NCBI GenBank assembly: GCA_035485715.1 | Contig: DATHNT010000013.1 | Span: forward strand, 26,448-90,447 | Length of the DNA stretch: 64,000 bases | Direction of reading: 5' to 3' | Source: Solirubrobacteraceae bacterium | GTDB lineage: Bacteria > Actinomycetota > Thermoleophilia > Solirubrobacterales > Solirubrobacteraceae | Part shown: in pieces, positions 1,891-39,956 of the stretch | How the letters are laid out: each line of letters starts with the position of its first letter | How positions within the stretch are numbered: the first letter of the stretch is position 1 | Position numbers and translations under genes: made by a program | The notes under the pieces: generated by a model | What the model saw: the letters and a program-made list of their open reading frames with translations, nothing else | What the model was told of the DNA's origin: nothing | The model's database searches: none

Positions 1891-3228
1891 TCAGCCGATC
1901 GGCGCCAGCGAGTTGCCCGGCGCGATGCTCGAACAGTTCCGCGGGGCCGGCAGTCCGGCGAAACGTTCGGCGAGCCAGGCGTCGGCTTCTCCCAGCCACA
2001 CTGTCGCGCTCGGAACGTGGCTGAGATGTTCATATTCCTCGTACTGCACGGAGACGCCGCGGCTGCAGTACTCGCGCGCAAGGCTGCGCACATCGCCCGC
2101 GATCATCACGCCGTCCCCCGGACCGATGCCTTCCTTGTTGCCCGAGGTTCCTTCGAGTTCGCCACCGTTGCCCTGGCCGATGAACATCGGCATGCTGGGC
2201 GTACCACGACCACCCATGATCAGCTGGTTCACCACTTCGACGTAGACTGGCACGCTCTCGGGTGTCTGGTATTCGGGCTTCGCCATCTGCGCCCAAGTGA
2301 GACCCGGGTACTCGCCGAGCACGGTCTCGATCGAGGCGTGCTGGAGCTTGTTGTAGAGCTGCAGCCCGTATTCGTTCAGGTACGGCGTGAGGTCGACGTG
2401 GAAGGCTCGCGAGACTCCGATCACCGACATCGGGATCACGCCGGCCCAGACGGCGCTGCCTTCGACGTAGTGCAGGTTGTGCGCGGGATCGACGAGCACG
2501 CCGCCCATCGCCGCACCGACGATACGCGAGCTGATGTCGGGCGCGTAGGAAGACGCGAGCTCGGCGGCCCACCCGGTCGCGATCGCGCCACCGGAATAGC
2601 CGATCAGGCCGATCTTCTTTGCTCCTGCCGCTCCGGCGGCGGGAGAGCCGAGCACAGCACGCAGCGAATCGAGCGTGTTCATCCCGTACTCCGGGCCCGC
2701 CGCGAAATCTGCCGTCTCGCCCTCGGTGTCGGGCACGACGACGGTCTCCCCCGCGAGCAGTGCGGGCGCGATCAACCCCGACTCCGCTGTCGGGATCAGA
2801 CCGCCCAGCGTAACCCCGCCGGAGACGGCGTAGGAAGGCTCGTCTTCGGGATTCAGCGAGTCGTAGAAGGACTGGTAGGAGACGATCGTGGGAGCGCCAA
2901 GGCGCAGAGGCGGCTGCAGCACAGAGGTCACGTTGACCGTCGGCGCTCCCGTCTCACCCGTCGACCGATAGAGCAGTTGCACCGCTTTGATCGGCAGTGG
3001 CACGCCCGCCACGTGGTAGGAGAGCGTGCGTGTCTTCAGCACAGTGCCCGGCGCGATGTTCGCCAGAGGCGTGGAGCCTTCGTAGGAGTAGAAGGGATCC
3101 GCCTCGGGCGGCGCCGCCGCGCCCTCGGCCGGCATCGTGAGCACCATGAAGACCACCAGCAGCCCGACCGCGAGAATGCCCGCTCCCAATTTCATCCCCG
3201 ACCCGATCACAAGACGCATCGGGTCCAC
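1891..3228 (-). CDS. Secretory lipase (LIP family alpha/beta hydrolase)
   Basis: Signal peptide ending AEGAAA; QLLYRST, SYQSFYDSL..EDEPSY, PDTEG, nucleophile GYSGG, late His (LSHV). Start could be 3219. Confidence 0.85.
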   Translation of the reverse strand: MDPMRLVIGSGMKLGAGILAVGLLVVFMVLTMPAEGAAAPPEADPFYSYEGSTPLANIAPGTVLKTRTLSYHVAGVPLPIKAVQLLYRSTGETGAPTVNVTSVLQPPLRLGAPTIVSYQSFYDSLNPEDEPSYAVSGGVTLGGLIPTAESGLIAPALLAGETVVVPDTEGETADFAAGPEYGMNTLDSLRAVLGSPAAGAAGAKKIGLIGYSGGAIATGWAAELASSYAPDISSRIVGAAMGGVLVDPAHNLHYVEGSAVWAGVIPMSVIGVSRAFHVDLTPYLNEYGLQLYNKLQHASIETVLGEYPGLTWAQMAKPEYQTPESVPVYVEVVNQLIMGGRGTPSMPMFIGQGNGGELEGTSGNKEGIGPGDGVMIAGDVRSLAREYCSRGVSVQYEEYEHLSHVPSATVWLGEADAWLAERFAGLPAPRNCSSIAPGNSLAPIG

Positions 3229-3349
3229 CTCTACCCGCTGACGCGACCGGTAATCGCCGCCGATGTGGCTATCGCTCGTCGAGCCGTATTACGAGAACAA
3301 TCGGTTCACCCGTGCGCGCGATACCAGCGCCCTGACGCGGTCGCAGCGC

Positions 3350-4033
3350 TCAAAGTTCCGTCACAAGCCCAAGCGCAAAACCGTCATGGCCCTTGGCGCC
3401 AACCGTCTGGATCGCGGTCGCGCTCACACGAGACTCCGCGGCAAGCATCTCGTAGAAGCCCCGCACACCGGCCGCTATCCCACCATCCTCGGCACTAGAG
3501 GCGTCAGAGTCGAGGATCGCACCGCCGCGCACGACGTTGTCGCCGATGATCAACGTGCCCACCCGCGAGAGCTTCAGCGACCACTCCAGATAGCCCGGGT
3601 AGTTCTGCTTGTCGGCGTCGATGAAGATCAGATCGAACGGGGCCGTCCCTTCGTCGTGCATCTCGGGCAGCGTCTCCAGTGCCGGACCCACCCGGACCTG
3701 CACCGTATCCGCCAAGCCTGCGTTGGCTATGTTCGCGAGCGCGACCTCGGCGTAGCGGGACTCGCGCTCGAGCGTGACGAGGCGTCCGCCCTCCGGTAGC
3801 GCACGGGCAAGCCAGATCGTGCTGTAGCCACCGAGGGTCCCCAACTCGAGAATGCTCTGCGCGCGGTGGATACGCGCGAGCAGTTCCAACAGCTTGCCTT
3901 GGTTGGGCGTAATCGCAATGGGCGGCAGGCCGGCGGCCTCACTGGCGGCGATGGCAGCGTCAAGCAACGGGTCCGGCGAGAGCAGGTGCTCTGCTATGTA
4001 GCCATCGACGGCTGTCCAAAGGTCCTGGTCCAT
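3350..4033 (-). CDS. SAM-dependent O-methyltransferase (COMT/CCoAOMT-like)
   Basis: LELGTLGGYSTIW, FDLIFIDADK, IIGDNV motifs. ATG 4033 chosen because TATCTT lies 8 nt upstream. Confidence 0.9.
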   Translation of the reverse strand: MDQDLWTAVDGYIAEHLLSPDPLLDAAIAASEAAGLPPIAITPNQGKLLELLARIHRAQSILELGTLGGYSTIWLARALPEGGRLVTLERESRYAEVALANIANAGLADTVQVRVGPALETLPEMHDEGTAPFDLIFIDADKQNYPGYLEWSLKLSRVGTLIIGDNVVRGGAILDSDASSAEDGGIAAGVRGFYEMLAAESRVSATAIQTVGAKGHDGFALGLVTEL

Positions 4034-4070: not shown

Positions 4071-4099
4071 TTGACATCCCCCAAGATTCATGTTACAGT
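4071..4099 (+). promoter_or_regulatory. Near-consensus primary-sigma promoter for the secreted-protein/ABC operon
   Basis: TTGACA (4071-4076), 17 nt spacer, TACAGT (4094-4099), with extended -10 TG at 4091-4092. Confidence 0.75.
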
Positions 4100-4149
4100 C
4101 GGTAAAGTGAATTTGTAGGAGAGGTTCGCCAGCCAAATACGGGTCGAGT

Positions 4150-4176
4150 TCGGTCGGTGTCGCGCGCACCGACCGA
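4150..4176 (+). other. 5' UTR hairpin
   Basis: TCGGTCGGTG / CACCGACCGA perfect 10-bp stem with 7-nt loop, ending 4 nt before the AGGAGG RBS (4181-4186). Confidence 0.6.
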
Positions 4177-4196
4177 CGCTAGGAGGTGGGTTAAGG

Positions 4197-4964
4197 ATGA
4201 CGCGCAAAGTCAGGCTCATCCTTGGTGGCGTCCTCACCTCCATATGTGTGTTGGTGGCCACGGTAGCCTGGGCCACCAACACACTGACGGTCACCGAGGC
4301 CTTCACTCCCGACAAGCTCGGGGCGCCGACGAACCTCTCGATCACCGCGCAATTCGCCTCCAGCACCGGCGGGCCGCCCTCGCCGATCACCCGGCTCACT
4401 CTGTATGCGCCCGCCGGACTGGGAGTCGACGCGCGCGGTGCCGGCACCTGCAGCGAAGCGACGCTGCGGCTGCGGGGTCCCCAAGGCTGCCCGGCCACCT
4501 CGCGCGTCGGCTTCGGTGGCGGCGTGGGCTTGATCGAACTCCCCAAACAGGTGATTCGCGAGCGCTTCACGATCGACTTCTTCTTTGCTCCTCACGAACA
4601 AGGACATCTGGCTCTACTCGCCTATGCCAGCGCCGTCCAGCCCGTGGCCGTCGAAATAACCGTCATCGCCAAGGAAGTCCCTGCTCCCAAGCCCTATGGA
4701 CTCGGCTTCAGCGTCGAAATACCGCCCATATCGACGATCCCAGGGGCGACGCTTGCCTCGGTCGAAAGTGCCTTTGCGACATTCGGCTCGCCCAATGTCG
4801 CCTACTACCAGACCGTCCACGGCAAGCGCACACTCGTACACCTGAAGGGCGTCGTTGTGCCCAAGGCCTGCCCGCGCGGAGGCTTTCCCACCGAGGGAAC
4901 GATCGACTTCGCCGACGGCAGCACGCTCACCGTCAATCCCACCATCCCATGCCCTCACGGCTGA
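4197..4964 (+). CDS. Secreted 4-Cys beta-rich protein of unknown function (paralog 1)
   Basis: AGGAGG RBS, signal peptide ending AWA, C-x12-CP, CPRGGFP and terminal CP. Homologous to 5033-5803 and 38623-39435. Confidence 0.85.
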   Translation: MTRKVRLILGGVLTSICVLVATVAWATNTLTVTEAFTPDKLGAPTNLSITAQFASSTGGPPSPITRLTLYAPAGLGVDARGAGTCSEATLRLRGPQGCPATSRVGFGGGVGLIELPKQVIRERFTIDFFFAPHEQGHLALLAYASAVQPVAVEITVIAKEVPAPKPYGLGFSVEIPPISTIPGATLASVESAFATFGSPNVAYYQTVHGKRTLVHLKGVVVPKACPRGGFPTEGTIDFADGSTLTVNPTIPCPHG

Positions 4965-5032
4965 ACGCGGCCGCGCGTGGGCGCGCCGTCGCGCTGGGCA
5001 GGACAAACCCTGGGCACACGCTCCCCACACGC

Positions 5033-5803
5033 GTGCGCGGCGCGCTGGAAGCAACAATCGGCACACCTCTGCGCGCCCTCCCGCTGGCGCTGCTCCTCGC
5101 GCTCGTCGCCTGCGTCGCACCGAGCTCAGCGCTGGCAACCCGATCGACGACGACCGCAACGATCGCACCCACGCTTTTCCCCGACCGGCTTGGCGCCGAG
5201 GGTGCGCTACGGCTGACGATCGACTACTCGAGCGACGAATCGGCTGTGCCGCTGCCGGTCAGTAGCTCAGTTTTGCGTTTTCCCGTTGGGCTGGGTGTCG
5301 AAATACCCCATCTGCGCAGCTGCTCGCTCACACGCCTGCGCGCGCAGGGGCCCAAAGCCTGCCCGCCACAGTCGCTGCTCGGCCACGGCCACGCAATCGC
5401 CGAGGCGCAGGCCGGCTCGCAGGTCGTCAGCGAGGGCATTCAGCTCACCCTGTTCGTTGGGCCCTTTCACAACCTGCAACCCACTTTCGAGATCCTTGGC
5501 CAGGGCTACACGCCGTTCGACGAGCGCGTCGTGCTGACCGGTACCGTGCGCCCGGACAATCCTCCCTACGGAGAAGACCTGGTGCTCTCGATTCCACCGA
5601 TCCCGACCCTGCCGCTCGAGCCCGATGCCTCGATCGTCAGCATGTCGCTGACGGTCGGCACCGCTAAACCTCGCCATCCGATTACCGTCAACACGGTACT
5701 CGTCCCTCCCAGCTGCCCGGCCGGCGGCTTTCCCTTCGCTGCCGAATTCACCTATGCCGACGGCTCCACCAGCAGCGCCTTTGCCAGCGCTGTCTGCCCA
5801 TGA
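5033..5803 (+). CDS. Secreted 4-Cys beta-rich protein of unknown function (paralog 2)
   Basis: 3' half of track ORF 4157..5803. GTG 5033 gives a signal peptide ending SSALA; PDRLGA, C-x12-CP, CPAGGFPF, YADGS, terminal CP. Start is approximate. Confidence 0.8.
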   Translation: MRGALEATIGTPLRALPLALLLALVACVAPSSALATRSTTTATIAPTLFPDRLGAEGALRLTIDYSSDESAVPLPVSSSVLRFPVGLGVEIPHLRSCSLTRLRAQGPKACPPQSLLGHGHAIAEAQAGSQVVSEGIQLTLFVGPFHNLQPTFEILGQGYTPFDERVVLTGTVRPDNPPYGEDLVLSIPPIPTLPLEPDASIVSMSLTVGTAKPRHPITVNTVLVPPSCPAGGFPFAAEFTYADGSTSSAFASAVCP

Positions 5804-6351
5804 GTAACGAGAGAAAGCAGGTATCCGAGATGTCTCGGCAAAATCCTCCATCGCGGAATCTGCGACGGACACTTGCATCTACGCTCGCACGCGAGGACTC
5901 GTCGCGAAGGCTGCGACTGCTTGGCGCTACGGCCGCTTGCGCCGGCATACTGGCATTGCTCGCCGCACCGACCTCGCTAGCGGCGAAAACGTTTTCGCTC
6001 AACGAGAACGGCAACCTTCGCTTGACCGGTAAGCAGGGCTTCACCCTCAACGAGGAGGGGCCCGCCTCCGGCACCGTCAGCGGCACGATCTACGTACACC
6101 TGAAGATCGTCTCCAGCACGCGCGTCACTGCCGAAATCAGCATCTACCCGCACGGCGGCTCGATCACCTGCTCGGGCAGCGCCGGCTACAAACGCGAAGG
6201 CTCCTCCGCCCACTTCTCCGGTGGACTGTCGATCGATCGCGGTACCGGCAGTTACGCGCACGCGCGCGGGTCCGGGCTGAGCTTCAGCGGCACGATTCAG
6301 CGCTCCAACGACGCGATCGCCGTGCACGTCGGCGGCACGGCAGCGGACTGA
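5800..6351 (+). CDS. Secreted small beta-barrel protein (allene-oxide-cyclase/dirigent-like, tentative), paralog 1
   Basis: ATGA overlap with upstream gene; Arg-rich n-region and hydrophobic signal ending SLA. Mature part about 120 aa of alternating beta pattern with IDRGTGSYAHARG. About half identical to 39450-39956. Confidence 0.8.
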   Translation: MSNERKQVSEMSRQNPPSRNLRRTLASTLAREDSSRRLRLLGATAACAGILALLAAPTSLAAKTFSLNENGNLRLTGKQGFTLNEEGPASGTVSGTIYVHLKIVSSTRVTAEISIYPHGGSITCSGSAGYKREGSSAHFSGGLSIDRGTGSYAHARGSGLSFSGTIQRSNDAIAVHVGGTAAD

Positions 6352-6377: not shown

Positions 6378-7097
6378 ATGCTCGAGCTGCGCGATCTGGT
6401 CAAGCACTATCCCGCCGTGGGCGGTGAGACCGTGCGCGCCGTGGACGGCGTTTCTCTCAAGGTCGAGGGCGGTGAGATGGTCGCCCTGTACGGGCCCAGC
6501 GGATCCGGCAAGACAACTCTGCTGCTGATGGTCGCCACATTGCTGGCGCCAACAGCCGGGGCGGTGTTGATCGGCGGACGCGACATCTCCTCGCTGTCCG
6601 AGCGCGAGGCGTCCAACTTCAGACTCTCCGAACTCGGCTTCATCCGCCAGAACTTCGACCTCCTGCCCGGCGTCAGCGCCATCGACAACACCGTGCTGAA
6701 GCTGTTGAAGGCGATGCGCTGGCGCGATGCTCAACGCCATGTCACACCCCTGCTCGAGCGTTTGGGCATGGGCGAGCGTTTGCACCACCGCGCGGAGACG
6801 CTCTCGATGGGCGAGCGCCAGCGCGTGATGATCGCACGCGCGCTCTCGACTGAACCGAGCATGCTGCTTGCCGACGAGCCGACGGGCAGCCTCGACACGC
6901 AGCGCGGGCGCGAAGTGCTCGAACTGTTGCGCAGCCTGTGTCGCGAGCGCGGCGTCGCCGTCGTGCTCGTAAGCCACGACCCGATGGCCGCCGAATACGC
7001 CGACCGCGTGCTGGCTTTGCGCGACGGGCAGCTGTGCGCCTACCAGCACGAGCAAGGCCCGCAAGCCCCTGCTCCACTGGTCGCAAACGGGGGTTGA
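6378..7097 (+). CDS. ABC transporter ATP-binding protein, LolD/MacB-like
   Basis: GPSGSGKT, LSMGERQR, LLADEPTGSLD, VSHD; RBS GGAGG. Confidence 0.95.
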   Translation: MLELRDLVKHYPAVGGETVRAVDGVSLKVEGGEMVALYGPSGSGKTTLLLMVATLLAPTAGAVLIGGRDISSLSEREASNFRLSELGFIRQNFDLLPGVSAIDNTVLKLLKAMRWRDAQRHVTPLLERLGMGERLHHRAETLSMGERQRVMIARALSTEPSMLLADEPTGSLDTQRGREVLELLRSLCRERGVAVVLVSHDPMAAEYADRVLALRDGQLCAYQHEQGPQAPAPLVANGG

Positions 7098-7099
7098 CG

Positions 7100-9619
7100 G
7101 TGAAGCTGTCGAACGCGCTACGCCTGTATCGGGTGCGTCTGCGCGCGCGCTTTCTGCAGGAGTGCTTTGCCGTGCTCGGCATCGCAGCCGGCGTCGCACT
7201 GCTGTTCGCCTCGCAGGTGTCGAGCTCGTCCCTGCAGGGCTCGGTCGCCCAGCTATCGCGTGCAGTCGTCGGCAAAGCCAATCTGCAACTCGTGGCGCGC
7301 GACCCGCACGGCTTTCCCGAGAGCATGCTTGCAAGGGTGCGCAATATCCCCGGTGTGCGGGTTGCGGCGCCGATATTGGAAGCCAACGCAAATGCTGTTG
7401 GGCCCCACGCCCGCGAGTCAATCGAGCTCGTAGGAGCGGATTCCGCTCTGTCTGCACTCCGCGGCACACTGCTCGCTCACGCCAACCTCTCGCCGTTCGG
7501 CAATATCGGCGCGGTCGCACTTCCCGCTCCCTTGGCCAAGGCGATCGGTGTCACCAAATTCGGGCAGGAAGTCAGCTTGCAGATTGCCGGGCGGACGGTT
7601 GACGCGCCGCTGTACGAACAGCTGCACGAACGCCAGATCGGTGCGCTGGTCGCCACACCGCTCGCGATCGCGCCGCTGTCCTACGCCCAGGAAATGACGG
7701 GCATGAGCGGTCGCGTGAGCCGCATCCTCGTGCAGAGCGCCGCCGGCTCACAGCCCAAGGTGCGAGCAGCGCTGACGGCACTTGCCGAGGGCCGCCTGAA
7801 CGTCGAGAGCACCAGCTACGACGAGACGCTGTTCGCGAAGGCGGCCACCGCCAGCAACCAGTCCACGGCTTTGTTCTCTGTCATCAGCGCCCTCGTTGGC
7901 TTCCTGTTTGCGTTCAACGCGATGCTGCTGACGGTGCCGCAGCGGCGGCGGCTGGTCGCGGACCTGCGCCGTGACGGGTACACGCCACTGACAGTGATCG
8001 CCGTGCTCTTGCTCGACGCGCTCGCTCTCGGGTTGATCGGCTGTGCGCTCGGGCTGGCGCTGGGCGAGGAGCTCTCGATTCACCTGTTTCATTCGAACCC
8101 GGCCTTCCTCTCGCTGGCCTTTGCCGTGGGCTCGCAGCGCGTCGTCAGTTGGCAGAGCGTCGCGATCGCGACCGGCGGCGGGATGCTGGCCGCAACCGTG
8201 GCGGTGTTGAGCCCGCTGCGCGACATCCTCTCGCGCGACCCGCTGGCCGCAATCAGTCCACGCGAAGGCAGCGGCGGCGCGCGCACAGGCCGACGCCGAG
8301 CGCTCGCGGGACTTGCTTGTCTTGCCGCCGCCACGGCAGTGCTGTTGGCCGAGCCGGATGCGGCCATTCCGGGCATGGTGCTGCTGCTCGGCGCGCTGCT
8401 GTTGGAGCTGCCGATCGTGCTCAGCGCGACGCTCGTAGCCGTCAAGCGGATCGGCTCTTTGATCGTGAGTCCCATCCCGCATGTCGCCGCAATGGAGCTT
8501 GGCGCCGCCCGCGCACGTGCCGTGGCGATAGCCGCAACGGGAGCAGTGGCCGTGTTCGGCAGCGTCGCGATCCAAGGTGCGCACGGCGACCTGCTGAGAG
8601 GGCTCGAAGGCGCGGCGCACGATACGAACGCCGCCACCGACGTTTGGGTAGCCCCTGCCGGCTCCTACAACCTGCTCGACACCACTCCCTTCACCCCAAC
8701 CGAGCGCTCGCGACTTGCACAGCTGCCGGGTGTGAAAGCAGTGCAGCTGTACCGCAGCGGCCTGCTCGACTACGGCTACCGGCGAGTGCTCGTGGTCGCG
8801 CCCGCGCGCGAAGCCACACCGCTGACACCCGCCGACCAACTGCTGCAAGGCAGCGCACACCAGGCCGAAGAACGAGTGCGCACGGGCGGCTGGGCGATCG
8901 TCTCGCAAGGGCTCGCCGAAGAACAGCACTTGCACGTCGGCCAGGTCTTCACCCCGCCCACACCCGATCCGCAGAGCTTCCGTGTGGCGGCGCTGTCGAC
9001 GAACCTCGGCTGGGCGCCCGGGTCGATTCTGATCAATGCAGCCGACTACGCGCGCGCGTGGGGGAGCCAGGATGCAAGCGCCTACAGCGTGCTGCTGAAT
9101 CCAGGCGTCCCGCCGAGACTCGCCGCCACCGAGATAAGGCATGCGCTCGGGCCTGGCACGGGGCTTGCGGTGCAAACCGCCGAAGCGCACGCGGCCGAGC
9201 AGGTCGCGCTCAGCCGCGAAGCCCTCGAACGACTCACACAGATCGCCACGCTGATCCCGATCGTGGCCGTGCTCGCGATGGCGGCGGCGATGGGCGCGAT
9301 GGTGTGGCAGCGCCGTCCGCGGCTGGCCAAGCTCAAGCTGGAGGGACTGCCGCGCGTGGAACTGTGGGGCACGATCCTGCTGGAGAGCCTGCTGCTACTC
9401 GGCGCCGGCTGCCTCACAGGGGCCGTCTTTGGCCTGTACGGCCAGCAACTGGCAGACCGTGCGCTTGCGCACGTGATCAACTTCCCCGTCGTCTATTCCG
9501 TCACGGCCCTGCCCGCGCTGCAGAGCCTCTCACTGGTAATCGTCACCGCGCTTGCGATCCTCGCGGTCCCAGGCTACATCGCCGCGTCGGTGCCGCCCGC
9601 GCTCGCGCTCCAAGATTGA
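7100..9619 (+). CDS. FtsX-like/MacB-type ABC permease with two extracytoplasmic + FtsX repeats (839 aa)
   Basis: N-terminal TM (LGIAAGVALLFAS), large soluble domain, 3-TM FtsX block (LVGFLFAFNAMLLTVPQRRR), then a second repeat; ends LALQD. GTG start chosen by alignment to the paralog at 36034. Confidence 0.9.
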   Translation: MKLSNALRLYRVRLRARFLQECFAVLGIAAGVALLFASQVSSSSLQGSVAQLSRAVVGKANLQLVARDPHGFPESMLARVRNIPGVRVAAPILEANANAVGPHARESIELVGADSALSALRGTLLAHANLSPFGNIGAVALPAPLAKAIGVTKFGQEVSLQIAGRTVDAPLYEQLHERQIGALVATPLAIAPLSYAQEMTGMSGRVSRILVQSAAGSQPKVRAALTALAEGRLNVESTSYDETLFAKAATASNQSTALFSVISALVGFLFAFNAMLLTVPQRRRLVADLRRDGYTPLTVIAVLLLDALALGLIGCALGLALGEELSIHLFHSNPAFLSLAFAVGSQRVVSWQSVAIATGGGMLAATVAVLSPLRDILSRDPLAAISPREGSGGARTGRRRALAGLACLAAATAVLLAEPDAAIPGMVLLLGALLLELPIVLSATLVAVKRIGSLIVSPIPHVAAMELGAARARAVAIAATGAVAVFGSVAIQGAHGDLLRGLEGAAHDTNAATDVWVAPAGSYNLLDTTPFTPTERSRLAQLPGVKAVQLYRSGLLDYGYRRVLVVAPAREATPLTPADQLLQGSAHQAEERVRTGGWAIVSQGLAEEQHLHVGQVFTPPTPDPQSFRVAALSTNLGWAPGSILINAADYARAWGSQDASAYSVLLNPGVPPRLAATEIRHALGPGTGLAVQTAEAHAAEQVALSREALERLTQIATLIPIVAVLAMAAAMGAMVWQRRPRLAKLKLEGLPRVELWGTILLESLLLLGAGCLTGAVFGLYGQQLADRALAHVINFPVVYSVTALPALQSLSLVIVTALAILAVPGYIAASVPPALALQD

Positions 9620-9626
9620 TACGCCG

Positions 9627-10346
9627 ATGGCCAAGGAAAGCGAGCGCGAGCAGGCACAGCGCGCGAGGCAGAAGCCGACACTCGAGCGCGAACGGACCGA
9701 ACGTACGAAGGCAAAGAAGCCGACGGGTGCAGGCGCCCAGCTCGAGCGCACCAAGCAAGAGCCCACCCGCGAGTACAAACAGGTCGAGCGCGCCAAGGCG
9801 CAGGAGCGCACACGCGAAGCGCTGATCGAGGCGGCAACCGACGAGTTCTTCGAGGGCAATTGGCTGAAAACCTCGCTCGACTCGCTCTCGCGCAAGGCCG
9901 GCGTCACCAGGCAGACACTGCTGCGCCACTTCGGCTCCAAGGACGGGCTGCTGATGCAGTCGCTGATGCGCGGCGCCGCACAGGTGCACGACCAACGCTG
10001 GAGCACGCCCACGACCAGCGTCGCCGACGCTGTGGACAACGTGATCGACCACTACGAAGATTGGGGCGAGCGCTCGGTGCGCGTCGGCGCCTGGCAGCGC
10101 GGCCCGACGGTGCTCGCCCTCTTCGCGAACGCTGCGCGCCAGATTCACTACGACTGGGTCGAGCACGCATTCGCGCATTGGCTTGAAGGGTTCGACGACG
10201 AAGCACGGGCGCAACTTCGGGCCATCTTGATCGTGCTGTGCGACGTGCAGACATGGTGGATTCTCTCCAACGACCTCGGCCTGCCGCGCAGGGAGGTCCA
10301 TGCGATCTTGACCGATCAGATCGAACGCGCACTGGAGGAGAAGTGA
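9627..10346 (+). CDS. TetR/AcrR-family transcriptional regulator with charged N-terminal extension
   Basis: HTH RTREALIEAA...SLDSLSRKAGVTRQTLLRHFGSKDGL. Confidence 0.9.
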   Translation: MAKESEREQAQRARQKPTLERERTERTKAKKPTGAGAQLERTKQEPTREYKQVERAKAQERTREALIEAATDEFFEGNWLKTSLDSLSRKAGVTRQTLLRHFGSKDGLLMQSLMRGAAQVHDQRWSTPTTSVADAVDNVIDHYEDWGERSVRVGAWQRGPTVLALFANAARQIHYDWVEHAFAHWLEGFDDEARAQLRAILIVLCDVQTWWILSNDLGLPRREVHAILTDQIERALEEK

Positions 10347-10392
10347 TGCAGGTCAGGCTCGCTTCGATACGCGCCGTCCCCATGCCCGCCCA

Positions 10393-10454
10393 GCGATCGA
10401 GCACGTACACATATTGGAAACGGGCGATCGAGCACGTGCACATGTTGGAAGCGG
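10393..10454. repeat. Tandem 31-bp direct repeat x2 (operator-like)
   Basis: GCGATCGAGCACGTACACATATTGGAAACGG / GCGATCGAGCACGTGCACATGTTGGAAGCGG, 28/31 identical. Confidence 0.85.
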
Positions 10455-10521
10455 CGGTCAAGTTGCCGTACGCGTGGGAGGCGGCGATGAAAATGCCGGT
10501 GCACCCGCGCCGGGGCCAGCG

Positions 10522-11853
10522 ATGAAGGTCTTGGCCTACACGTCCCCCGCGCGCGGCCACCTTTACCCGGCCGTGCCGATCATGGCAGAGCTCGCGCGGC
10601 GCGGCCACAGCGCGACGCTGTACTCGCTTGCCGGCGAGCTCGGACAGCTGGCGCCGCTTGGCATCGAGGGCGCCGCAATCGACCCCGCGATAGAACGCAT
10701 CGAGATCGAGGACTACCGCGAGCGCTCCCAGCTGGGCGCGATCCGCTCGGTATTCAGGGCGTTCCTGAAGCGCTCGGCGAGCGAGGCCCCCGACCTCGAA
10801 CAGGCGATTGCCAAGCACGATCCGGACTTGCTGCTGATCGACATCAACTGTTGGGGAGCAGCGACCGTGGCCGAGGCAAGCGGACGGCCGTGGGCCATAT
10901 ATTCGCCTTACCTGCTGCCGCTTCCCTCCAAAGACGCACCGGCCTACGGACCGGGACTGCGCCCGCTGGGCGGCCCGCTCGGGGCCGTGCGCGACACGAT
11001 CGTCAACCGCGTAAGCGAGCGCATCTCCTTTCAAAGCACGATGCCGCGGATCAACGCGCTGCGCTCCGAGCACGGGCTGCCCGCACTCGCACGCTTCGAC
11101 GACCTGCTGGCGGCGCCGAATCTGCTGCTGTCGCTGACCGCCGAGGGCTTCGAGTACCCGCGCGGCGACTGGCCGGCGAATGTGAAGCTGGTCGGCCCGA
11201 TGAATTGGAGTCCGCCGCTCGACGGACGCTCAGACAATGGTCTCGCTCACCGAACAGCACTCAACGAGGGAACTGCTCCCGAGCCACACTCTCCCGAGCC
11301 GACTTCTCCCCAACGCCTCCCAGATGCCCCCACGTGGCTGGACGAGCTGGCCGACCCACTGGTACTCGTCACCTGCTCGACCGAGCTCCAACGCGACAAG
11401 CGACTGCTGCACGTGGCACTCGAAGCGTTGCCGGCGGCCGGCATATCGGTACTCGGTACGACCGCGGCCCACGATCCCGCCGGCTTCGCCACCACACCCG
11501 GCAGCAAGGTCGTGCGCTTCGTCCCGCACGATGCCGTCCTCGGGCGTGCTGCGTGCGTGGTCTGCCACGGCGGCCTCGGCATCACACAAAAGGCGCTTGC
11601 AGCCGAGGTCCCGGTCGTGGTCGTGCCCTTTGGACGCGACCAAGCCGAGACGGCCAGACGGGTCGAGTTCGCCAAGGCCGGCGTGCGTCTCCCGCCACGC
11701 CACCTGACTCCCGAGCGGCTGCTCGGCGCCGTGCACGGCGCGATGCAGTGTCGCGAGGGCGCGCAACGCGTGAGTCGCGCTTACACTGCGGCCGGTGGAG
11801 CAAGCGCCGCGGCAGAAGCGATCGAGGCGATCGCCAGGGACGCATCGCGGTAG
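10522..11853 (+). CDS. GT1/MGT-family UDP-glycosyltransferase
   Basis: N-terminal GHLYP and C-terminal PSPG-like box FVPHDAVL...VCHGGLG...VVVPFGRDQ. Confidence 0.9.
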   Translation: MKVLAYTSPARGHLYPAVPIMAELARRGHSATLYSLAGELGQLAPLGIEGAAIDPAIERIEIEDYRERSQLGAIRSVFRAFLKRSASEAPDLEQAIAKHDPDLLLIDINCWGAATVAEASGRPWAIYSPYLLPLPSKDAPAYGPGLRPLGGPLGAVRDTIVNRVSERISFQSTMPRINALRSEHGLPALARFDDLLAAPNLLLSLTAEGFEYPRGDWPANVKLVGPMNWSPPLDGRSDNGLAHRTALNEGTAPEPHSPEPTSPQRLPDAPTWLDELADPLVLVTCSTELQRDKRLLHVALEALPAAGISVLGTTAAHDPAGFATTPGSKVVRFVPHDAVLGRAACVVCHGGLGITQKALAAEVPVVVVPFGRDQAETARRVEFAKAGVRLPPRHLTPERLLGAVHGAMQCREGAQRVSRAYTAAGGASAAAEAIEAIARDASR

Positions 11854-13302: not shown

Positions 13303-13305
13303 GCC

Positions 13306-33975: not shown

Positions 33976-35199
33976 ATGGCGCCGCTCAACCGTGTGGCGC
34001 TGCTTGTCACGTTCGCTCACGCCGCGTTCAGCTACTGGACGAGCGTATTCCCACGCGTCTGCTTTTACGTCGCCCGCTGGCGACGCCGCGCGCGGCGAAT
34101 ACCCGATCCCGTACTACGTCAGTTAGCACTCGACGCGCTCGACAAGCGCGGCAACATCGAGGGCGCAGCGGCTTTCGCCGCGTTCGTTCCGTTGGCCCGA
34201 CGGACCGACGTGACGAGGGCCACGAGCGCCTTCCAAGCGGCGTACAACCTGCTCGACATACTCGGCGAGCAGCCAAGCCCCGATCCGGTGCTCGACGGGC
34301 GACGACTGCACGAAGCACTGGTCTATGCGGTCACCCCGAAAGGCACCACAGCGCCGCGCGGCAGCGAAGTGGGCTCTCTCGACACGGACTCCTCCAGCGC
34401 CGATGGATGCACGACGGAGGGCGCTCGTGCACTCGACTGGTATGAGCATCATCCGCAACGCAACGACGGCGGATATCTGGACGCACTGATAGAGGAATGC
34501 CGTGACGCATTCGCGGCACTGCCCTCCCACCTCATGGCGGCGCCCTCAGCGCAGGCCGCGGCCGCTCGCATCGTCGCCTTTCAGAGCCTCAACCTGAGCA
34601 GGTCCCAGGGCGAGCACACCGGCTTGGAGCAGTGGGCGCGCGCAGCCACACCGCCCGGAACCGACTTGCAATGGTGGGAGACCGCCGCCGCGGCCGGCTC
34701 CTCGCTTGGCGTGCACGTACTGATCGCGGCCGCCGCCGGGCCGCAGCTCGAGATGGGCGAGGTCAACGTGCTGGCGCACGCCTACTTTCCTTGGATCGGC
34801 GGTTTGCACTCGCTGCTTGACAACCTGATCGACAAACACGAGGACGAGGCGGCGGGCCACCGCAGCCTGATCGAGTACTACGGCCCCGAGCAGGCCGCAC
34901 AGCGGATGAGGTGGATTGCCGAGCAGGCCCTCGAGAAGGCCGGCGGGCTGCCGCACAGCCGCCGCCACATCGTGATCTTGGCAGCGATGATCGGCAACTA
35001 TCTGGCGACGCCCGAAGCACACAGTGCCGAGCTGCAACCGATCGGCGACAGCGTGCTTGCCACGGTCAACGCGCTTCGGCGGCCGACGATGCTCGTGTTC
35101 GAGTTGCGCCGTCTACCCGCGCTGATACGGGCCAAGCTTGGGCATCCAGCCGACGATACACAGAAGCAGACAACTCCCAACGTGGACATTTTCAGATAG
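33976..35199 (+). CDS. DUF2600 family protein (YtpB/tetraprenyl-beta-curcumene-synthase-like class I terpene synthase)
   Basis: NDGGYLDALIEEC, WWETAAAAGSSLG, YFPWIGGLHSLLDNLIDKHED, SLIEYY, all typical of DUF2600. Confidence 0.85.
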   Translation: MAPLNRVALLVTFAHAAFSYWTSVFPRVCFYVARWRRRARRIPDPVLRQLALDALDKRGNIEGAAAFAAFVPLARRTDVTRATSAFQAAYNLLDILGEQPSPDPVLDGRRLHEALVYAVTPKGTTAPRGSEVGSLDTDSSSADGCTTEGARALDWYEHHPQRNDGGYLDALIEECRDAFAALPSHLMAAPSAQAAAARIVAFQSLNLSRSQGEHTGLEQWARAATPPGTDLQWWETAAAAGSSLGVHVLIAAAAGPQLEMGEVNVLAHAYFPWIGGLHSLLDNLIDKHEDEAAGHRSLIEYYGPEQAAQRMRWIAEQALEKAGGLPHSRRHIVILAAMIGNYLATPEAHSAELQPIGDSVLATVNALRRPTMLVFELRRLPALIRAKLGHPADDTQKQTTPNVDIFR

Positions 35200-35276: not shown

Positions 35277-36008
35277 ATGCTGGAGCTGCGGGATCTCGTC
35301 AAGCACTACCACACAGCCGGAGAGGAGACCGTACGCGCCGTAGACGGCGTGTCGCTATCGGTCTCCCAGGGCGAGATGGTTGCCCTTTACGGTCCGAGCG
35401 GCTCGGGTAAGACCACCCTGCTTCTGATGGTCGCCGCGCTGTTGGCGCCGACCAGCGGCAAAGTCCTGGTGAACGGCCGCGACATCTCTTCGCTCTCAGA
35501 GCGCGAGGCATCGCATTTCCGCCTCCAGGAAATGGGCTTCGTGCGTCAGAACTTCGATCTGCTGCCCGGCGTGACGGCGATCGACAACACGGTGCTCAAG
35601 CTGCTCAAGAACACCCCTTGGAAGGATGCCCACAAAAGCGTACAGCCGTTGCTCGAGCGCTTGGGACTGGGCGGGCGTCTCACGCACCGCTCCGAGACGC
35701 TCTCGATGGGCGAGCGTCAACGCGTGATGATCGCCAGGGCGCTGTCGACCGAGCCGAAGCTGCTGCTCGCCGACGAGCCAACCGGCAGCCTCGACACGCA
35801 GCGCGGGCGCGAGGTGCTCGAACTACTGACCGAGCTGTGCCGCGAACGAGGCGTGGCGATCGTGCTCGTCAGCCACGATCCCCAGGCGGCCGCATACGCC
35901 GACCGCGTACTGGCGCTGCGCGATGGCAAGCTGGTCGACTACGACCCAGACCAGGGTCTCGCGCCCACCAGCTCCGCACGCGGCGCGCACGACGACAGCG
36001 CGGCGTGA
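35277..36008 (+). CDS. ABC transporter ATP-binding protein, LolD/MacB-like (paralog of 6378-7097)
   Basis: GPSGSGKT, LSMGERQR, ADEPTGSLD, VSHD. RBS GGAG; TAGCAT -10 at 35233-35238. Confidence 0.95.
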   Translation: MLELRDLVKHYHTAGEETVRAVDGVSLSVSQGEMVALYGPSGSGKTTLLLMVAALLAPTSGKVLVNGRDISSLSEREASHFRLQEMGFVRQNFDLLPGVTAIDNTVLKLLKNTPWKDAHKSVQPLLERLGLGGRLTHRSETLSMGERQRVMIARALSTEPKLLLADEPTGSLDTQRGREVLELLTELCRERGVAIVLVSHDPQAAAYADRVLALRDGKLVDYDPDQGLAPTSSARGAHDDSAA

Positions 36009-36033: not shown

Positions 36034-38550
36034 ATGAGGTTCGCGAACGTGCTTCACCTGTACCGCGTGCGTCTGCGTGCGCGGGCCCTGCAAGAGTGCT
36101 TCGCCCTGATCGGTATCGCCGCCGGCGTAGGGCTTCTGTTCGCCTCCCAGATCGCCAGCTCAAGCCTGTCAAGCTCGGTTGGGCAGCTCAACAGCGGCAT
36201 CGTCGGCGCCGCGACTTTGCAGCTGACCGCGCGCGCGGCACAGGGCATGCCGGAAAAGCTCGTCGACGAAACTCGGCGGCTGAATGGGGTGCGGATCGCG
36301 GCTCCGCTGCTCGAAGTGAGCGCCAACGCGGTCGGGCCGAAGGGCAGCGACTCGGTGGAGCTCGTCGGCGCCGACAGCACGTTGGCCGAACTCAAGGGCG
36401 CGCTCGTGCGCAAAGTGGCGCTCACTCCTTTCGCCGGCGTAGAAGCGGTCGTGCTGCCCGCGCCCGTCGCCAAAACGCTTGGAGCCAAGAAATTCGGTGA
36501 CATCATCAAGTTTCAAGCGCTTGGGCACACGAGCGAAGCGGCGCTCTATTCACGACTTGGCGAAAAGCAGATCGGCGCTCTGATCTCCAGCCCGATCGCC
36601 ATCAGCACGCTTGAATACGTACAGAAAGCGAGCGGCTTGAACGGACGCGTGAGCCGCATCCTGGTCGAGCCCAAGCCCGGCCAGACAGCGACTGTACGAG
36701 CCGGCTTGGAACGAATCGCCCAGGGGCGCTACGGCGTGGAGTCGGCAAGCTATGACGAACAGCTGTTTGCCAAGGCGGCAGCCGCAACCAACCAGTCGAC
36801 GCAACTGTTCGCGGTCATCAGTGCGCTTGTCGGCTTCCTGTTCGCGTTCAACGCGATGTTGCTGACCGTTCCCCAACGCCGGCGCCTGATCGCCGACCTG
36901 CGCCGTGACGGCTACACGCCGAAGGCGGTGATCGCCGTGCTGATGTTCGACGCCGTCGTGCTCGGCACGATCGCCTGCGCGATCGGACTGGTGCTCGGCG
37001 ATGAGCTCTCGATCCACCTTTTCCATTCGAACCCGGGCTATCTGTCATCCGCCTTCGCGGTTGGCTCTGAGCGCGTCGTGAACTTGCAGAGCATCGTCAT
37101 CTCGATAGTCGGCGGCATGGGCGCCGCGAGCGTGGCCGTGTTGAGCCCTTTCAAGGACATCGTCTCGCGCAACCCGCTTGCCGCGATCGAAACCAAGGAA
37201 GGCACCGGCGGAAGCACCTCGCCACTACTGACCATCTTCGGACTCCTGTGCCTTGCGGCCACACTCGCGATCCTGCTTGCCGCCCCACAGGCGGCGATCG
37301 TCGGGATGGTCACGCTGATCGCGGCGTTGCTCGCACTACTGGCGATACCGCTCAGCGGCATGCTCGCACTGGTGAGACGAATAGCGCCGAGCATCGTCAG
37401 CGCCGTACCGCACATCGCCGTGATGGAGCTTCGGGCCGGGCGCTCGCGCGCGATCGCGATCGCCGCGACCGGTGCGATCGCCGTGTTCGGCAGCGTCTCG
37501 ATCCAAGGGGCACACAGCGACCTGCTGAAGGGGCTGTACAACGCGGCAAGCGACGTCAATGCTTCGACCGACGTCTGGGTGTCGGCGGCCGGCAACTCCA
37601 ACCTGCTGATGACTTCCCCCTTTACCCCGACCCAGCAGGCAAAGTTGGCCGCGCTGCCTGGGGTGCGCTCGGTCCGCATCTACCGCGGGGGCCTGCTCGA
37701 CTACAACGACCGGCGCATCTGGGTGATCGCGCCGCCCAGCGAAGCCTCGCCGCTGGTGCCGCCGACACAGCTCGTGGAAGGTAGCGTCACCCAGGCCGAC
37801 GCGCGCGTGCGCGAAGGGGGCTGGGCGGTCGTCTCGCTGGCGCTCGCCGAAGAACACAAACTGAAAATCGGCCAGTCCTTCACACTGCCGACGCCGAATC
37901 CGAGCACGTACCGCGTCGCCGCGATCAGCACCAACATCGGCTGGGCGCCAGGAGCGATCGTGATGAGTGCCGGCGACTACGCAAAGGCCTGGGGCAGCAG
38001 CGACGCAAGCGCCTACAACGTGCTGATGCAGCCTGGCGTCTCGCCCGAGCAGGGCGTGCACGAGATCAGAGCGGCCCTGGGCAGCGAAACGGCACTCGCA
38101 GCGCAGACCGCTGAAGAGCACGCCAACACACTGCGCTCGATCACGCGCCAGGGCCTTGAACGGCTCTCGCAGATCGCGACCCTGATCCTGGTGGCAGCAG
38201 TGATGGCAATGGCAGCGGCGATGGGCGCGATGATCTGGCAGCGCCGTCCACGCCTGGCCAAGCTCAAGCTCGAGGGCTTCCCCCATCGCGAACTTTGGTA
38301 CACGATCGTGCTCGAGAGCCTGATGCTGCTGGGCGTCGGCTGCTTCAGCGGAGCCGTCTTCGGTCTCTTCGGCCAGCAACTGCTCGACCGCGCCTTGAAC
38401 ATCGTCATCAACTACCCCGTCGTCAGCTCCGTCGGGGTGGTGGTGGCGCTGTCGAGCCTCGCGCTCGTCACTGCCTCCGCCGTTCTGATGGTGGCGATCC
38501 CCGGCTGGTTCGCCGCCAAGGTGCAGGCCAGCCTCGCACTCCAAGACTAG
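36034..38550 (+). CDS. FtsX-like/MacB-type double-repeat ABC permease (838 aa, paralog of 7100-9619)
   Basis: Colinear with 7100-9619, sharing blocks such as LFSV/LFAVISALVGFLFAFNAMLLTVPQRRRL and RRPRLAKLKLEG; ends LALQD. Confidence 0.92.
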   Translation: MRFANVLHLYRVRLRARALQECFALIGIAAGVGLLFASQIASSSLSSSVGQLNSGIVGAATLQLTARAAQGMPEKLVDETRRLNGVRIAAPLLEVSANAVGPKGSDSVELVGADSTLAELKGALVRKVALTPFAGVEAVVLPAPVAKTLGAKKFGDIIKFQALGHTSEAALYSRLGEKQIGALISSPIAISTLEYVQKASGLNGRVSRILVEPKPGQTATVRAGLERIAQGRYGVESASYDEQLFAKAAAATNQSTQLFAVISALVGFLFAFNAMLLTVPQRRRLIADLRRDGYTPKAVIAVLMFDAVVLGTIACAIGLVLGDELSIHLFHSNPGYLSSAFAVGSERVVNLQSIVISIVGGMGAASVAVLSPFKDIVSRNPLAAIETKEGTGGSTSPLLTIFGLLCLAATLAILLAAPQAAIVGMVTLIAALLALLAIPLSGMLALVRRIAPSIVSAVPHIAVMELRAGRSRAIAIAATGAIAVFGSVSIQGAHSDLLKGLYNAASDVNASTDVWVSAAGNSNLLMTSPFTPTQQAKLAALPGVRSVRIYRGGLLDYNDRRIWVIAPPSEASPLVPPTQLVEGSVTQADARVREGGWAVVSLALAEEHKLKIGQSFTLPTPNPSTYRVAAISTNIGWAPGAIVMSAGDYAKAWGSSDASAYNVLMQPGVSPEQGVHEIRAALGSETALAAQTAEEHANTLRSITRQGLERLSQIATLILVAAVMAMAAAMGAMIWQRRPRLAKLKLEGFPHRELWYTIVLESLMLLGVGCFSGAVFGLFGQQLLDRALNIVINYPVVSSVGVVVALSSLALVTASAVLMVAIPGWFAAKVQASLALQD

Positions 38551-38622: not shown

Positions 38623-39435
38623 CTATTTCTTGTGAGGAGTCGGCGGCGGGCAGGGGACGTTGTGCGTCGCCACCACCTGGCTGCCGTCTTGGAACGTGAA
38701 CAGCGCGGAGAACGGGAAACCACCCTTTGGACACTTCGTCGGAAGTGAGATGCCCTGCGGTTTGTAACCAACCAGTTTTCCGTGCACTCGCTTGTAGTAG
38801 GTGAGATGTTCGGGGCCGATCGTCGATTTGACGTTGATGATCGACACCGGCGGTCCGTTCGTGACACTGGGTATCTGCGGGATCGCGGTGTCGAGATCGC
38901 CGCCGAATGCGCCTTCTCCGGGAAGCAATTCGCCCGCGAAGACGATCTGCGCATATACGGGCGCAAGCCCATTGGCGTAGAACAGCACCACGATGTTGCC
39001 TTCGTGCGGTGGCCCCATCAATGCCTCGATTTCAGGAATCTCCCGGCCCGCACCCTCTCCAAACGGCACTTCCACGAATGCGCTGCCGAATCCCAGTCGA
39101 GAGTTGGCGGGACAGCCCGCGATGCCTTTCGCCACCAGCGCTTCGGGCTTGCAGATTGCCAGCCCAAGGGTGGTCGTGACGTAGTTCATGCCCTTGGGCA
39201 TCCGCAAGCTGACGTGAGTCAGCGGCGAAGGTAGCCCGCCTGTCGTACTACCGATCGTGAAGCCGAAGCCGATCGTTGTCGAGGCGCCCAACTTCTCGGG
39301 CGTGAACGACGTCTGCAAGGCGACCGTCTCAGCTGCCTGCGCCGATGCGGAGATCCCGCACAGCACAAGTAGGCAGCTGAGAGCAAGCGGCCCAAGCACG
39401 AGGGCGCGAGCCCTGCGTATCCGCGCTCTGGACAA
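38623..39435 (-). CDS. Secreted 4-Cys beta-rich protein of unknown function (paralog 3)
   Basis: GGAGG RBS, signal ending AQA; PEKLGA, C-x12-CP, YYKRVHGK, CPKGGFPF, FQDGS, CP. Confidence 0.85.
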   Translation of the reverse strand: MSRARIRRARALVLGPLALSCLLVLCGISASAQAAETVALQTSFTPEKLGASTTIGFGFTIGSTTGGLPSPLTHVSLRMPKGMNYVTTTLGLAICKPEALVAKGIAGCPANSRLGFGSAFVEVPFGEGAGREIPEIEALMGPPHEGNIVVLFYANGLAPVYAQIVFAGELLPGEGAFGGDLDTAIPQIPSVTNGPPVSIINVKSTIGPEHLTYYKRVHGKLVGYKPQGISLPTKCPKGGFPFSALFTFQDGSQVVATHNVPCPPPTPHKK

Positions 39436-39449: not shown

Positions 39450-39956
39450 CTAATACGACATGGGTCCGCTCACGTGCACCGTGACGGCGTCGTTTGAGCG
39501 CTGGATGGTGCCGCTGAAGCTGAGAGCCGAGGCTTTCGCTTTCGAGTAGGTACCACTGCCTTTGGTGATCGTCATCGTGCCCGAGAACGACGCGGTCGAG
39601 CCGGCCACGTGGTAGCTCGCTTTGGCGTCACCGCTGATCGAGCCGCCTTTGGGATAGACCTGCACCTGCGCGGTCACGCTGCGGGTCGAGGTGACGTCGA
39701 GCTGCAGGTAGAGCTTGCCGCTCAGCGAGCCTTTCGCCGTGCCACCCTCTTTGAGCACGAGCCCGTGTTTGTTTTCCAGGTGCAGGCTGGCGCTGTCGTT
39801 CAAGTCGAGCGTGCGCGCAGCTGTCGCATGCGGCGCCGCAGCACCGGCTCCGGCCGTGCCGAAGGCCGCAGCTGTCGCGGCAGCGCCGAGCGCAAGCGCG
39901 GCGGTTGAGATACGCATGCGAGCGGACTTGCGCTTGCGCGAAGACTGATTCCCCAT
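39450..39956 (-). CDS. Secreted small beta-barrel protein (AOC/dirigent-like, tentative), paralog 2
   Basis: GGAGGG RBS before ATG 39956; Ala-rich signal; ITKGSGTYSKAK and LSFSGTIQRSNDA shared with 5800-6351. Confidence 0.8.
   Translation of the reverse strand: MGNQSSRKRKSARMRISTAALALGAAATAAAFGTAGAGAAAPHATAARTLDLNDSASLHLENKHGLVLKEGGTAKGSLSGKLYLQLDVTSTRSVTAQVQVYPKGGSISGDAKASYHVAGSTASFSGTMTITKGSGTYSKAKASALSFSGTIQRSNDAVTVHVSGPMSY

Follow-up and report, generated by a model that had tools for sequence, protein, structure and literature searches.

Two families of secreted proteins are linked to one clade of type VII ABC transporters in Solirubrobacterales and may form its extracytoplasmic partner module

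The 64,000-nucleotide stretch of a Solirubrobacteraceae genome that is analysed here (contig DATHNT010000013.1; this whole stretch is called the window below) encodes three related secreted proteins with four fixed cysteines, P1, P2 and P3, and two small secreted (SS) proteins of another family, SS1 and SS2, beside the genes of two ATP-binding cassette (ABC) transporters of the FtsX/MacB type. The genes for the four-cysteine (4-Cys) proteins, the SS proteins and the transporter are inherited as one cassette that occurs in three gene orders, and the window holds two diverged copies, A and B, of the whole cassette. The interpretation that we favour, and to which we give an even chance of being correct, is that the 4-Cys and SS proteins together serve one clade of type VII (FtsX/MacB) ABC transporters as an extracytoplasmic partner module.

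The linkage was followed in two sets of loci: a P1-anchored set of 80 genome loci, obtained from 80 metagenome-assembled genomes of Solirubrobacterales with P1 orthologues as the query, and a permease-anchored set of 80 metagenome contigs. P2 lies directly downstream of P1 in all 80 loci of the first set, and an SS gene is next after P2 in 70 of the 80, followed by the ATPase and permease genes where the sequence is long enough. Exactly two 4-Cys genes and one SS gene are present in 57 of these loci, the rest being mostly frameshift splits in the assemblies or loci with extra copies, and the flanks of cassette A are conserved across the set as well, with an OMT gene upstream and TetR and glycosyltransferase genes downstream. 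In the permease-anchored set, both families are present in 14/14 loci with full flanks whose permease is at least 60% identical, against 1/10 loci of a sister clade that has a permease ~50% identical and an extra ATPase-like gene (Fisher p ~1e-5, a value that ignores phylogenetic non-independence). The three gene orders are two 4-Cys genes followed by SS, ATPase and permease; ATPase and permease convergent with SS and a 4-Cys gene, an arrangement that the P3 orthologues P0123 and P0144 share with P3; and SS, 4-Cys, DUF2600, ATPase and permease, all in one direction. Co-location and co-distribution with the transporter genes, by which membership of the partner class was judged, are thus both observed.

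The two cassettes of the window (Table 1) have diverged unevenly. In cassette A the genes follow the first of the three orders, and in cassette B those for ATPase B and permease B are convergent with those for SS2 and then P3. Between A and B, identity is 81% for the ATPases, 68-71% for the membrane regions of the permeases, 60% for their outer domain 2, 53% for their outer domain 1, 47% for the SS proteins across the mature domain and 31-32% for the 4-Cys proteins. A fall in identity of this kind, from the cytoplasm outward, would be expected were the outer parts adapting together to different partners or cargo. Divergence between the cassettes is fastest in the outer domains and the putative partners, and the 4-Cys and SS proteins may bind the outer domains directly.

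Permease A has ten membrane helices as predicted from hydropathy and two outer domains of ~220 amino acids, at residues 43-262 (MacB_PCD) and 495-716. The best NCBIfam match of ATPase A is LolD (2.4e-57), ahead of MacB (2.2e-51) and YbbA (3e-49), all of these being under the equivalog cut-offs. Comparison of the permease with PDB sequences gave no match at E<0.01 and weak matches to LolC, YtrF and MacB at E up to 10, so that sequence gives no basis for placing it in the YbbP subfamily. Part of outer domain 1 of permease A (residues 114-205) also gave weak, repeated matches to farnesyl-diphosphate synthases (E 0.03-0.5 in the PDB and 0.007 for PRK10581 in NCBIfam); these are probably compositional noise, curious as they are beside the DUF2600 and polyprenyl link discussed below. 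The TetR and glycosyltransferase genes are found in many loci after the permease gene or directly after P2.

Table 1. Cassette genes and associated features of the window
Feature	Position	Strand	Description
Promoter-like site	4071..4099	+	TTGACA-17-TACAGT, TG before -10; upstream of P1; 10/12 consensus matches; called strong
P1, 4-Cys secreted protein	4197..4964	+	255 aa, of which 1-26 are the signal peptide; opens cassette A
P2, 4-Cys secreted protein	5033..5803	+	256 aa, or 284 aa from ATG 4949; lacks the YY..VHGK hairpin
SS1, small secreted protein	5800..6351	+	183 aa (173 aa from 5830); mature domain ~121 aa, eight predicted beta-strands
ABC ATPase A	6378..7097	+	LolD/MacB/FtsE/YbbA-like; Pfam ABC_tran
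Permease A	7094..9619	+	~840 aa (start TTG 7094 or GTG 7100); Pfam FtsX x2 and MacB_PCD
TetR-family regulator	9552-10346	+	Pfam TetR_N; frequent downstream neighbour of cassette A, non-core
GT1/MGT-family glycosyltransferase	10414-11853	+	Pfam EryCIII-like_C, UDPGT; NCBIfam MGT 1.5e-36; frequent downstream neighbour, non-core
Cassette B cluster genes	30947-46948		Bac_transf, GT2, GT4, GT2, GAF-HD(HD_5) protein resembling c-di-GMP phosphodiesterases, Wzx-like flippase, Wzy_C, ComA (phosphosulfolactate synthase)
DUF2600 gene (PF10776, YtpB family)	33997..35199	+	Pfam 7.4e-66; directly upstream of ATPase B
ABC ATPase B	35277..36008	+	81% identical to ATPase A
Permease B	36034..38550	+	838 aa; 63% identical to permease A; same topology
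P3, 4-Cys secreted protein	38623..39435	-	270 aa; convergent with permease B, downstream of SS2
SS2, small secreted protein	39450..39956	-	168 aa from ATG 39956; open reading frame extends to 40109

A preliminary description of the same DNA, made from the sequence alone, had drawn attention to the three 4-Cys proteins, and all three open reading frames (ORFs) were found where it had placed them. BLASTP alignments over nearly the full length identify P1, P2 and P3 as true paralogues whose similarity is far above chance, with 32% identity between P1 and P3 (E 2e-42), 30% between P1 and P2 (E 3e-30) and 31% between P2 and P3 (E 5e-29). The motifs that had been listed for them, P(D/E)(K/R)LGA, P.G, C-x12-CP..S..G.G, IP.I, CP.GGFP, DGS and a terminal CP, are all present in the alignment of the three, which also bears out the earlier claim that YY..VHGK is shared by P1 and P3 and missing from P2, the cause being a 9-residue deletion in P2. 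Each protein has a hydrophobic N-terminal segment that ends in A-x-A (AWA followed by T, ALA by T and AQA by A), in keeping with the signal peptides that had been proposed, and the mature lengths of P1, P2 and P3 are 229, 221 and 236 aa (masses ~23-24 kDa). A hidden Markov model (HMM) of the family finds P1, P2 and P3 in the 64 kb and no fourth copy.

The start of P2 is ambiguous between GTG 5033 and ATG 4949, the latter being used in the 284-aa call of the source pipeline (P0122), which overlaps the end of P1; GTG 5033 better matches the spacing in orthologues. The P2 stop codon overlaps the SS1 start (ATGA), and an AGGAGG stands at 4181-4186, ahead of the P1 start codon. Two properties of these proteins were considered and set aside: the hydrophobicity of the mature proteins (grand average of hydropathy +0.12 to +0.16), which lies within the upper range of the soluble proteins of this high-GC genome (median -0.08), and a lipobox-like motif of P2 (LVAC), which would have made it a lipoprotein and which is not conserved (11 of 127 relatives).

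The family extends well beyond the window. P1 alone as the query recovers 841 homologues and a profile of the three proteins at least 2077, and an exhaustive search by profile through 1.84 billion 50%-identity cluster representatives gave 1686 matches at E<=1e-3 and 740 at 1e-10. P3 itself had no exact match on record, and its orthologues P0123 and P0144 stand in for it here. All named matches are entries called 'hypothetical protein' from metagenome-assembled genomes of Solirubrobacteraceae or Solirubrobacterales, and the family appears to be lineage-specific and is so far known only from Solirubrobacterales. The four-cysteine pattern that had been described as fixed is kept in these homologues as C-x12-C...C-x26-C: among 150 representatives of 50%-identity clusters, cysteine occupies the four columns in 148/148, 148/149, 145/145 and 145/145 sequences, and of 120 relatives, 110 have exactly 12 residues in the first spacing and 115 exactly 26 in the second. 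A lack of conservation of the cysteines in homologues, which had been named at the outset as a refuting observation, is therefore not what is seen. The remaining conserved columns are mostly proline or glycine, E122 (89%) and Y203 (94%) being the only conserved polar positions, and conservation that falls mostly on Pro, Gly and Cys fits a scaffold or binder better than an enzyme. A hydrophobic N-terminus is present in 115 of 127 relatives. The invariant paired cysteines, taken with the export signals, make two disulfides in P1-P3 plausible and are consistent with an oxidising, extracytoplasmic location, and P1-P3 are predicted to be exported to the same compartment as the permease outer domains.

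No domain had been recognised in the 4-Cys proteins at the outset, and none emerged from the profile searches. P1-P3 have nothing except noise at E<=1 in Pfam-A 2025 and NCBIfam r20, no family is matched by more than one of 110 diverse relatives scanned singly, and the only match of the family profile among PDB sequences is 6s5w_A at E 0.89. Scans of SS1, SS2 and long relatives against Pfam and NCBIfam likewise gave nothing usable, and no paper describing either family was found in the literature. One relative, P0249 (1201 aa, found in metagenomes only), is a large secreted protein that has a full 4-Cys domain at its C-terminal end and two further partial matches; its N-terminal modules, in which no Pfam domain was found, repeat the half of the family represented by 'LPAGL.GNP...C-x12-CP..S.IG', and this N-terminal half may be a more widely used module.

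Judged by their sequences, the SS proteins are a second unannotated family that is tied genetically to the 4-Cys proteins. The family has 2019 homologues, none with a Pfam domain, in the same taxa as the 4-Cys family; the homologues of SS2 are 168-169 aa long, and the family profile found nothing among PDB sequences. The two families are also joined physically, in in-frame 4-Cys::SS fusions from independent assemblies (P0173, P0264 with NCBI accession HUN79009.1, P0285, L105 and L092), those at L105:4632-6299 and L092:235-1554 being single uninterrupted ORFs. The fusions consist of a P2-type 4-Cys domain, a basic linker of 40-60 residues and an SS domain that has lost its signal peptide, and in the fusion loci a single 4-Cys gene stands upstream of the ABC genes. 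The preliminary description had taken in neither the SS family nor the fact that P3 belongs to another cassette paralogous to the first.

The model of P1 that AlphaFold2 gave from an alignment of 68 sequences (mean predicted local distance difference test score, pLDDT, 83.8; predicted template modelling score, pTM, 0.76) consists of the signal-peptide helix followed by ~15 beta-strands, with one short helix (87-93) between C85 and C98. The P2-type domain of the fusion P0264, which was modelled independently, has the same strand order without the hairpin specific to P1 and P3, which is formed in the P1 model by the YY..VHGK stretch; the SS domain of the same fusion is predicted as eight consecutive antiparallel beta-strands (pLDDT ~88-92). 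The beta-sandwich that had been suggested for the 4-Cys proteins is supported by the models as far as their all-beta character, which does not tell a sandwich from a barrel. A Foldseek comparison, which had been proposed as a check, was run with whole chains as queries and significance set at E<=0.001, and it matched no known enzyme or binding family significantly: the best PDB match had E 7.8e-3 for P1, with template modelling (TM) scores of at most 0.31, and E 1.1e-2 for the fusion, and the one match of P1 in BFVD, at E 8e-4 with a TM score of 0.17, leaves nothing meaningful there. As compared in this way with the PDB and BFVD, the modelled 4-Cys proteins possibly represent a new fold.

Type VII ABC transporters typically act via a periplasmic partner (PMC12646458), and in the YbbAP-TesA system of E. 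coli a ten-helix permease with two periplasmic domains holds between these domains a partner that was found by gene co-location (PMC12646458). This literature on periplasmic partners and the like architecture of the permeases make a partner module the most likely role for the 4-Cys and SS proteins. The preliminary description had mentioned substrate-binding partners of the permease among its suggestions; the link to the permease is upheld by synteny and co-distribution, but the classical sense of a substrate-binding protein is not, given all-beta proteins and a mechanotransmitting permease of the FtsX/MacB type. The models do not have the two alpha/beta lobes of an ABC-importer substrate-binding protein but a single 7-residue helix among their strands, and the permease is not of an importer type.

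The resemblance to YbbAP-TesA includes a LolD/MacB-like ATPase, a single permease of ~800-840 aa with two FtsX domains, ten helices and two outer domains, and a gene for a partner with a signal peptide that adjoins the transporter genes, the partner having been proposed in both cases from genomic co-location. The systems differ in that TesA is a hydrolase of the SGNH type whose active site is defined, whereas the 4-Cys proteins are predicted to be all-beta and locked by cysteines and have no catalytic motif or family match; in that there are two partner families here, with two or three proteins per cassette, in an actinobacterial host of the Gram-positive type; and in that the permease has no specific sequence similarity to YbbP. 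A likeness to LolCDE-LolA would lie, under the proposal made here, in the extraction by a type VII ABC transporter of a lipidic molecule from the outer leaflet and its transfer to a soluble, beta-rich carrier on an outer domain. ATPase A has its best NCBIfam match in LolD and the permease has its best in LolC/E, all well below cut-off, but neither LolA nor LolB is matched significantly in structure, the two units of the permease are fused into one protein instead of forming a LolC and LolE pair, and nothing here points to lipoproteins as cargo.

In the proposed mechanism, the ATPase would drive movement of the permease outer domains by mechanotransmission, and the secreted proteins, P1, P2 and SS1 in cassette A or P3 and SS2 in cassette B, would dock on these domains. 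Once docked, these would take up, retain or transfer a hydrophobic molecule of the envelope that comes from the outer leaflet, in a hand-off comparable to those of YbbAP with TesA and of LolCDE with LolA. For the cargo, a lipid or glycolipid derived from a polyprenyl or terpenoid compound is a guess but a reasonable candidate; the identity of the cargo and direct binding are the weakest steps of the partner interpretation. The specific version of it in which the transporter extracts a polyprenyl- or C35-terpenoid-derived lipid or glycolipid and a chain of disulfide-locked secreted beta proteins with new folds (first an SS barrel, next P2 and last P1; or SS2 and next P3) carries this into or across the wall is, in our estimation, unlikely.

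The candidate cargo is suggested by the persistent linkage to DUF2600 and by the position of cassette B within a polysaccharide or glycoconjugate cluster of the Wzx/Wzy type; the TetR and MGT-family glycosyltransferase genes that usually neighbour cassette A also lie behind the guess. The DUF2600 family is linked to tetraprenyl-beta-curcumene synthase, and YtpB, which belongs to it, is that synthase and starts C35 terpenoid synthesis from heptaprenyl diphosphate (PMC5307852; bioRxiv 10.1101/2024.01.17.576085). A DUF2600 gene stands upstream of the ATPase gene in 14 of the 16 B-type loci with room upstream, and at L102 (5053-6273) it abuts the start of the ATPase gene. All 21 loci of the sister clade have the gene (16 of 16 with room for it, plus 5 on truncated contigs), downstream of the permease (L137-L162, at ~9640-10680), and DUF2600 paired with the ABC genes may constitute a separate system. 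P3 orthologues at L081 and L082 are flanked by the same glycan-cluster neighbours as cassette B. At L081:9061-10434 an insertion sequence element (DDE_Tnp_1 and DUF772 ORFs) lies between the P3 orthologue and the permease gene, neither of which is disrupted.

Expression was assessed from near-identical contigs in three soil metatranscriptomes, with window positions 44001-64000 outside the whole-window baseline. P1 is covered in one run by contigs 4127-4445 and 4489-4639, the first of which starts 28 nt downstream of the predicted promoter, and P3 and SS2 are covered in all three runs. Single contigs cross the SS2/P3 junction in two runs (39292-39574 and 39387-39626), and the two genes are thus co-transcribed. 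No contigs from the three metatranscriptomes lie over P2, SS1 or either set of ABC genes. The genes detected are real and fairly well expressed, and the contigs show nothing beyond this, depth being a poor measure of expression; several other genes of the window have contigs of similar depth. One contig ends at 38556, 67 nt beyond the P3 stop, with 15 unmatched letters that are A-rich on the RNA strand (AAAAAGACAAAAGAG), which may reflect either a 3' end bearing a short tail or an artefact of assembly.

Several observations weigh against a partner module or the transfer of lipid. DUF2600 occurs in only 2 of 85 A-type loci and is missing from cassette A of the window, which makes the lipid argument indirect for P1 and P2. 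Neither LolA, LolB, LprG and TesA nor another known carrier was matched in fold by Foldseek, an mLolB variant among the P1 matches having a non-significant E of 0.49, and the permease is by sequence no nearer to YbbP than to LolC or MacB. The pTM of the fusion model is 0.59, so that it gives no confident packing of the 4-Cys domain against the SS domain. In about 10 of the 80 loci the P1-P2 pair lacks SS and ABC genes in its vicinity (e.g. L028, L051 and L064), often within a genome that has a complete cassette as well (L027/L064 and L033/L051), and a distant stand-alone paralogue (L037:~3050-3817; 118 bits on the family HMM) keeps the four cysteines next to a gene for a sigma factor of the extracytoplasmic function type, with no ABC or SS genes within 8 kb; members of the family can therefore exist apart from the transporter. 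Finally, the detection in RNA of the secreted genes and not of the ABC genes would also suit abundant structural proteins.

The preliminary description had also suggested pilin- or adhesin-like subunits, which in the version considered here would polymerise, for example by strand exchange, into a filament or layer of the wall, with the ABC transporter aiding assembly or only loosely related. The detection of P1 and P3/SS2 RNA in soil without that of the adjacent ABC genes suggests abundant products; the paralogue pairs resemble a major and a minor subunit; P0249 has three family-like modules, as adhesins often do; and the top Foldseek matches, all weak, include the Iho670 filament, the T6 pilin, YncM and a camelysin-like protease. 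Gram-positive pilins and TasA/camelysin fibre proteins are, like the 4-Cys proteins, secreted all-beta proteins of ~25 kDa encoded by adjacent paralogues. The pilin and filament matches are nevertheless non-significant (E >=7.8e-3, with TM <=0.31), and that to Iho670 (E 7.8e-3, TM 0.23) arises because the signal-peptide helix was left in the P1 model. Nothing else supports such subunits: an LP.T[GAS] sorting signal is found in the last 60 residues of 0 of 127 relatives, many of which end 1-3 residues past the last cysteine; the leaders are of the ordinary n-h-c type with A-x-A rather than the class III prepilin type required of type IV pilins; no gene for a sortase, usher, chaperone or SipW-type peptidase is among the neighbours scanned; and the N-terminal strand (28-37) is packed in the P1 monomer model (pLDDT ~88). 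Fibre subunits would also leave the strict co-distribution with one ABC clade and the fusions to SS unexplained, and we consider them improbable.

The same synteny that favours a partner would hold if a 4-Cys or SS protein were an enzyme acting on the molecule that the pump extracts, for which TesA on YbbAP is the precedent (PMC12646458). The conservation of E122 and Y203 could be read in this way, but conservation falls overwhelmingly on Pro, Gly and Cys and forms no Ser-His-Asp, metal-binding or comparable arrangement, and no enzyme family was matched in Pfam, NCBIfam or the PDB; a catalytic partner is accordingly distinctly unlikely. If the 4-Cys and SS proteins were instead clients of the transporter, needing it for release from the membrane or maturation as lipoproteins need LolCDE, the same co-distribution would again be expected, and many signal peptides contain a cysteine (at one column, in 37 of 118 representatives). 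The lipobox-like motif is nevertheless confined to the few relatives noted above, the signal peptides end in A-x-A as for signal peptidase I, and we know of no precedent for a pump that serves only two or three particular soluble proteins, so that we hold this role to be very improbable.

In operons of the lactococcin 972 type, the gene for a beta-sandwich bacteriocin secreted by Sec precedes those for an FtsX-type permease and an ATPase. Cysteine-paired secreted beta proteins directly upstream of an FtsX-type ABC transporter recall such an antibacterial protein with its immunity or export system, and ATPase A matches TIGR03608, 'putative bacteriocin export ABC transporter', at 6.5e-46, which is under the cut-off and weaker than LolD and MacB. 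The conservation of synteny, flanking genes included, in 80 species-level genomes, and P1 identities (56-93%) that track those of the permease (63-94%), point however to vertical inheritance rather than to the patchy distribution of a bacteriocin. With two to three paralogous cassettes per genome, and no match to Lactococcin_972 or a toxin family in Pfam for P1-P3 and 110 relatives, an antibacterial function is highly unlikely. Operons of the AttEFGH and M. tuberculosis Rv0986-Rv0988 type have an ABC ATPase, a ten-helix permease of ~850 aa with two FtsX domains and an adjacent exported, beta-rich, two-domain AttH-like (lipocalin-like) protein, the size of which resembles that of the natural 4-Cys::SS fusions; P1-P3, SS1, SS2 and 110 relatives have, unlike it, no Pfam match of the AttH/CrtC type at E up to 1.

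Each new partner of a type VII transporter has revealed a new envelope process, as was the case for EnvC, LolA, MacA and most recently TesA. The cassettes offer a testable case of this kind in abundant, uncultured soil Actinomycetota, with two unannotated families that are tied to one transporter clade, duplicated in a single genome, joined in some relatives by natural fusion and transcribed in soil. If the lipid hand-off is real, the pathway would be a monoderm counterpart of Lol or Lpt assembled from unrelated parts, and the secreted proteins a new class of type VII ABC partner. As carriers of a terpenoid or polyprenyl lipid, they would show how a lipid leaves the membrane in monoderms and would give a function to the widespread DUF2600-ABC linkage; if they are not carriers, both families are still good targets for structure determination, since they have confident models without a PDB match.

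The window contains no rRNA, tRNA or Rfam element. Genes related to the envelope and to lipids are numerous around the cassettes. Positions 12061-30000 encode a Na/H exchanger and MMPL, P450, LtrA, CMAS and amine-oxidase-type flavoprotein genes, and a secreted GDSL/SGNH lipase, of the same superfamily as TesA, is encoded at 17539-18558. Positions 48644-59939 carry Polysacc_synt_2, DUF354, DedA/VTT and BacA genes, two Ser/Thr kinases, one of them with PASTA repeats, a PBP and a PP2C. At the left edge, on the minus strand, a PadR regulator (1137-1721) and an ABC ATPase-like gene (406-1140) appear to be the start of a third paralogous system. The order at L004 and L011 is PadR, ATPase-like, ATPase and a permease that is 37% identical, with no 4-Cys or SS genes; at L011 a DUF2600 gene follows the permease, and L004 ends inside the permease. 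This system is also transcribed in soil, as a contig at 920-1731 with a depth of 9.

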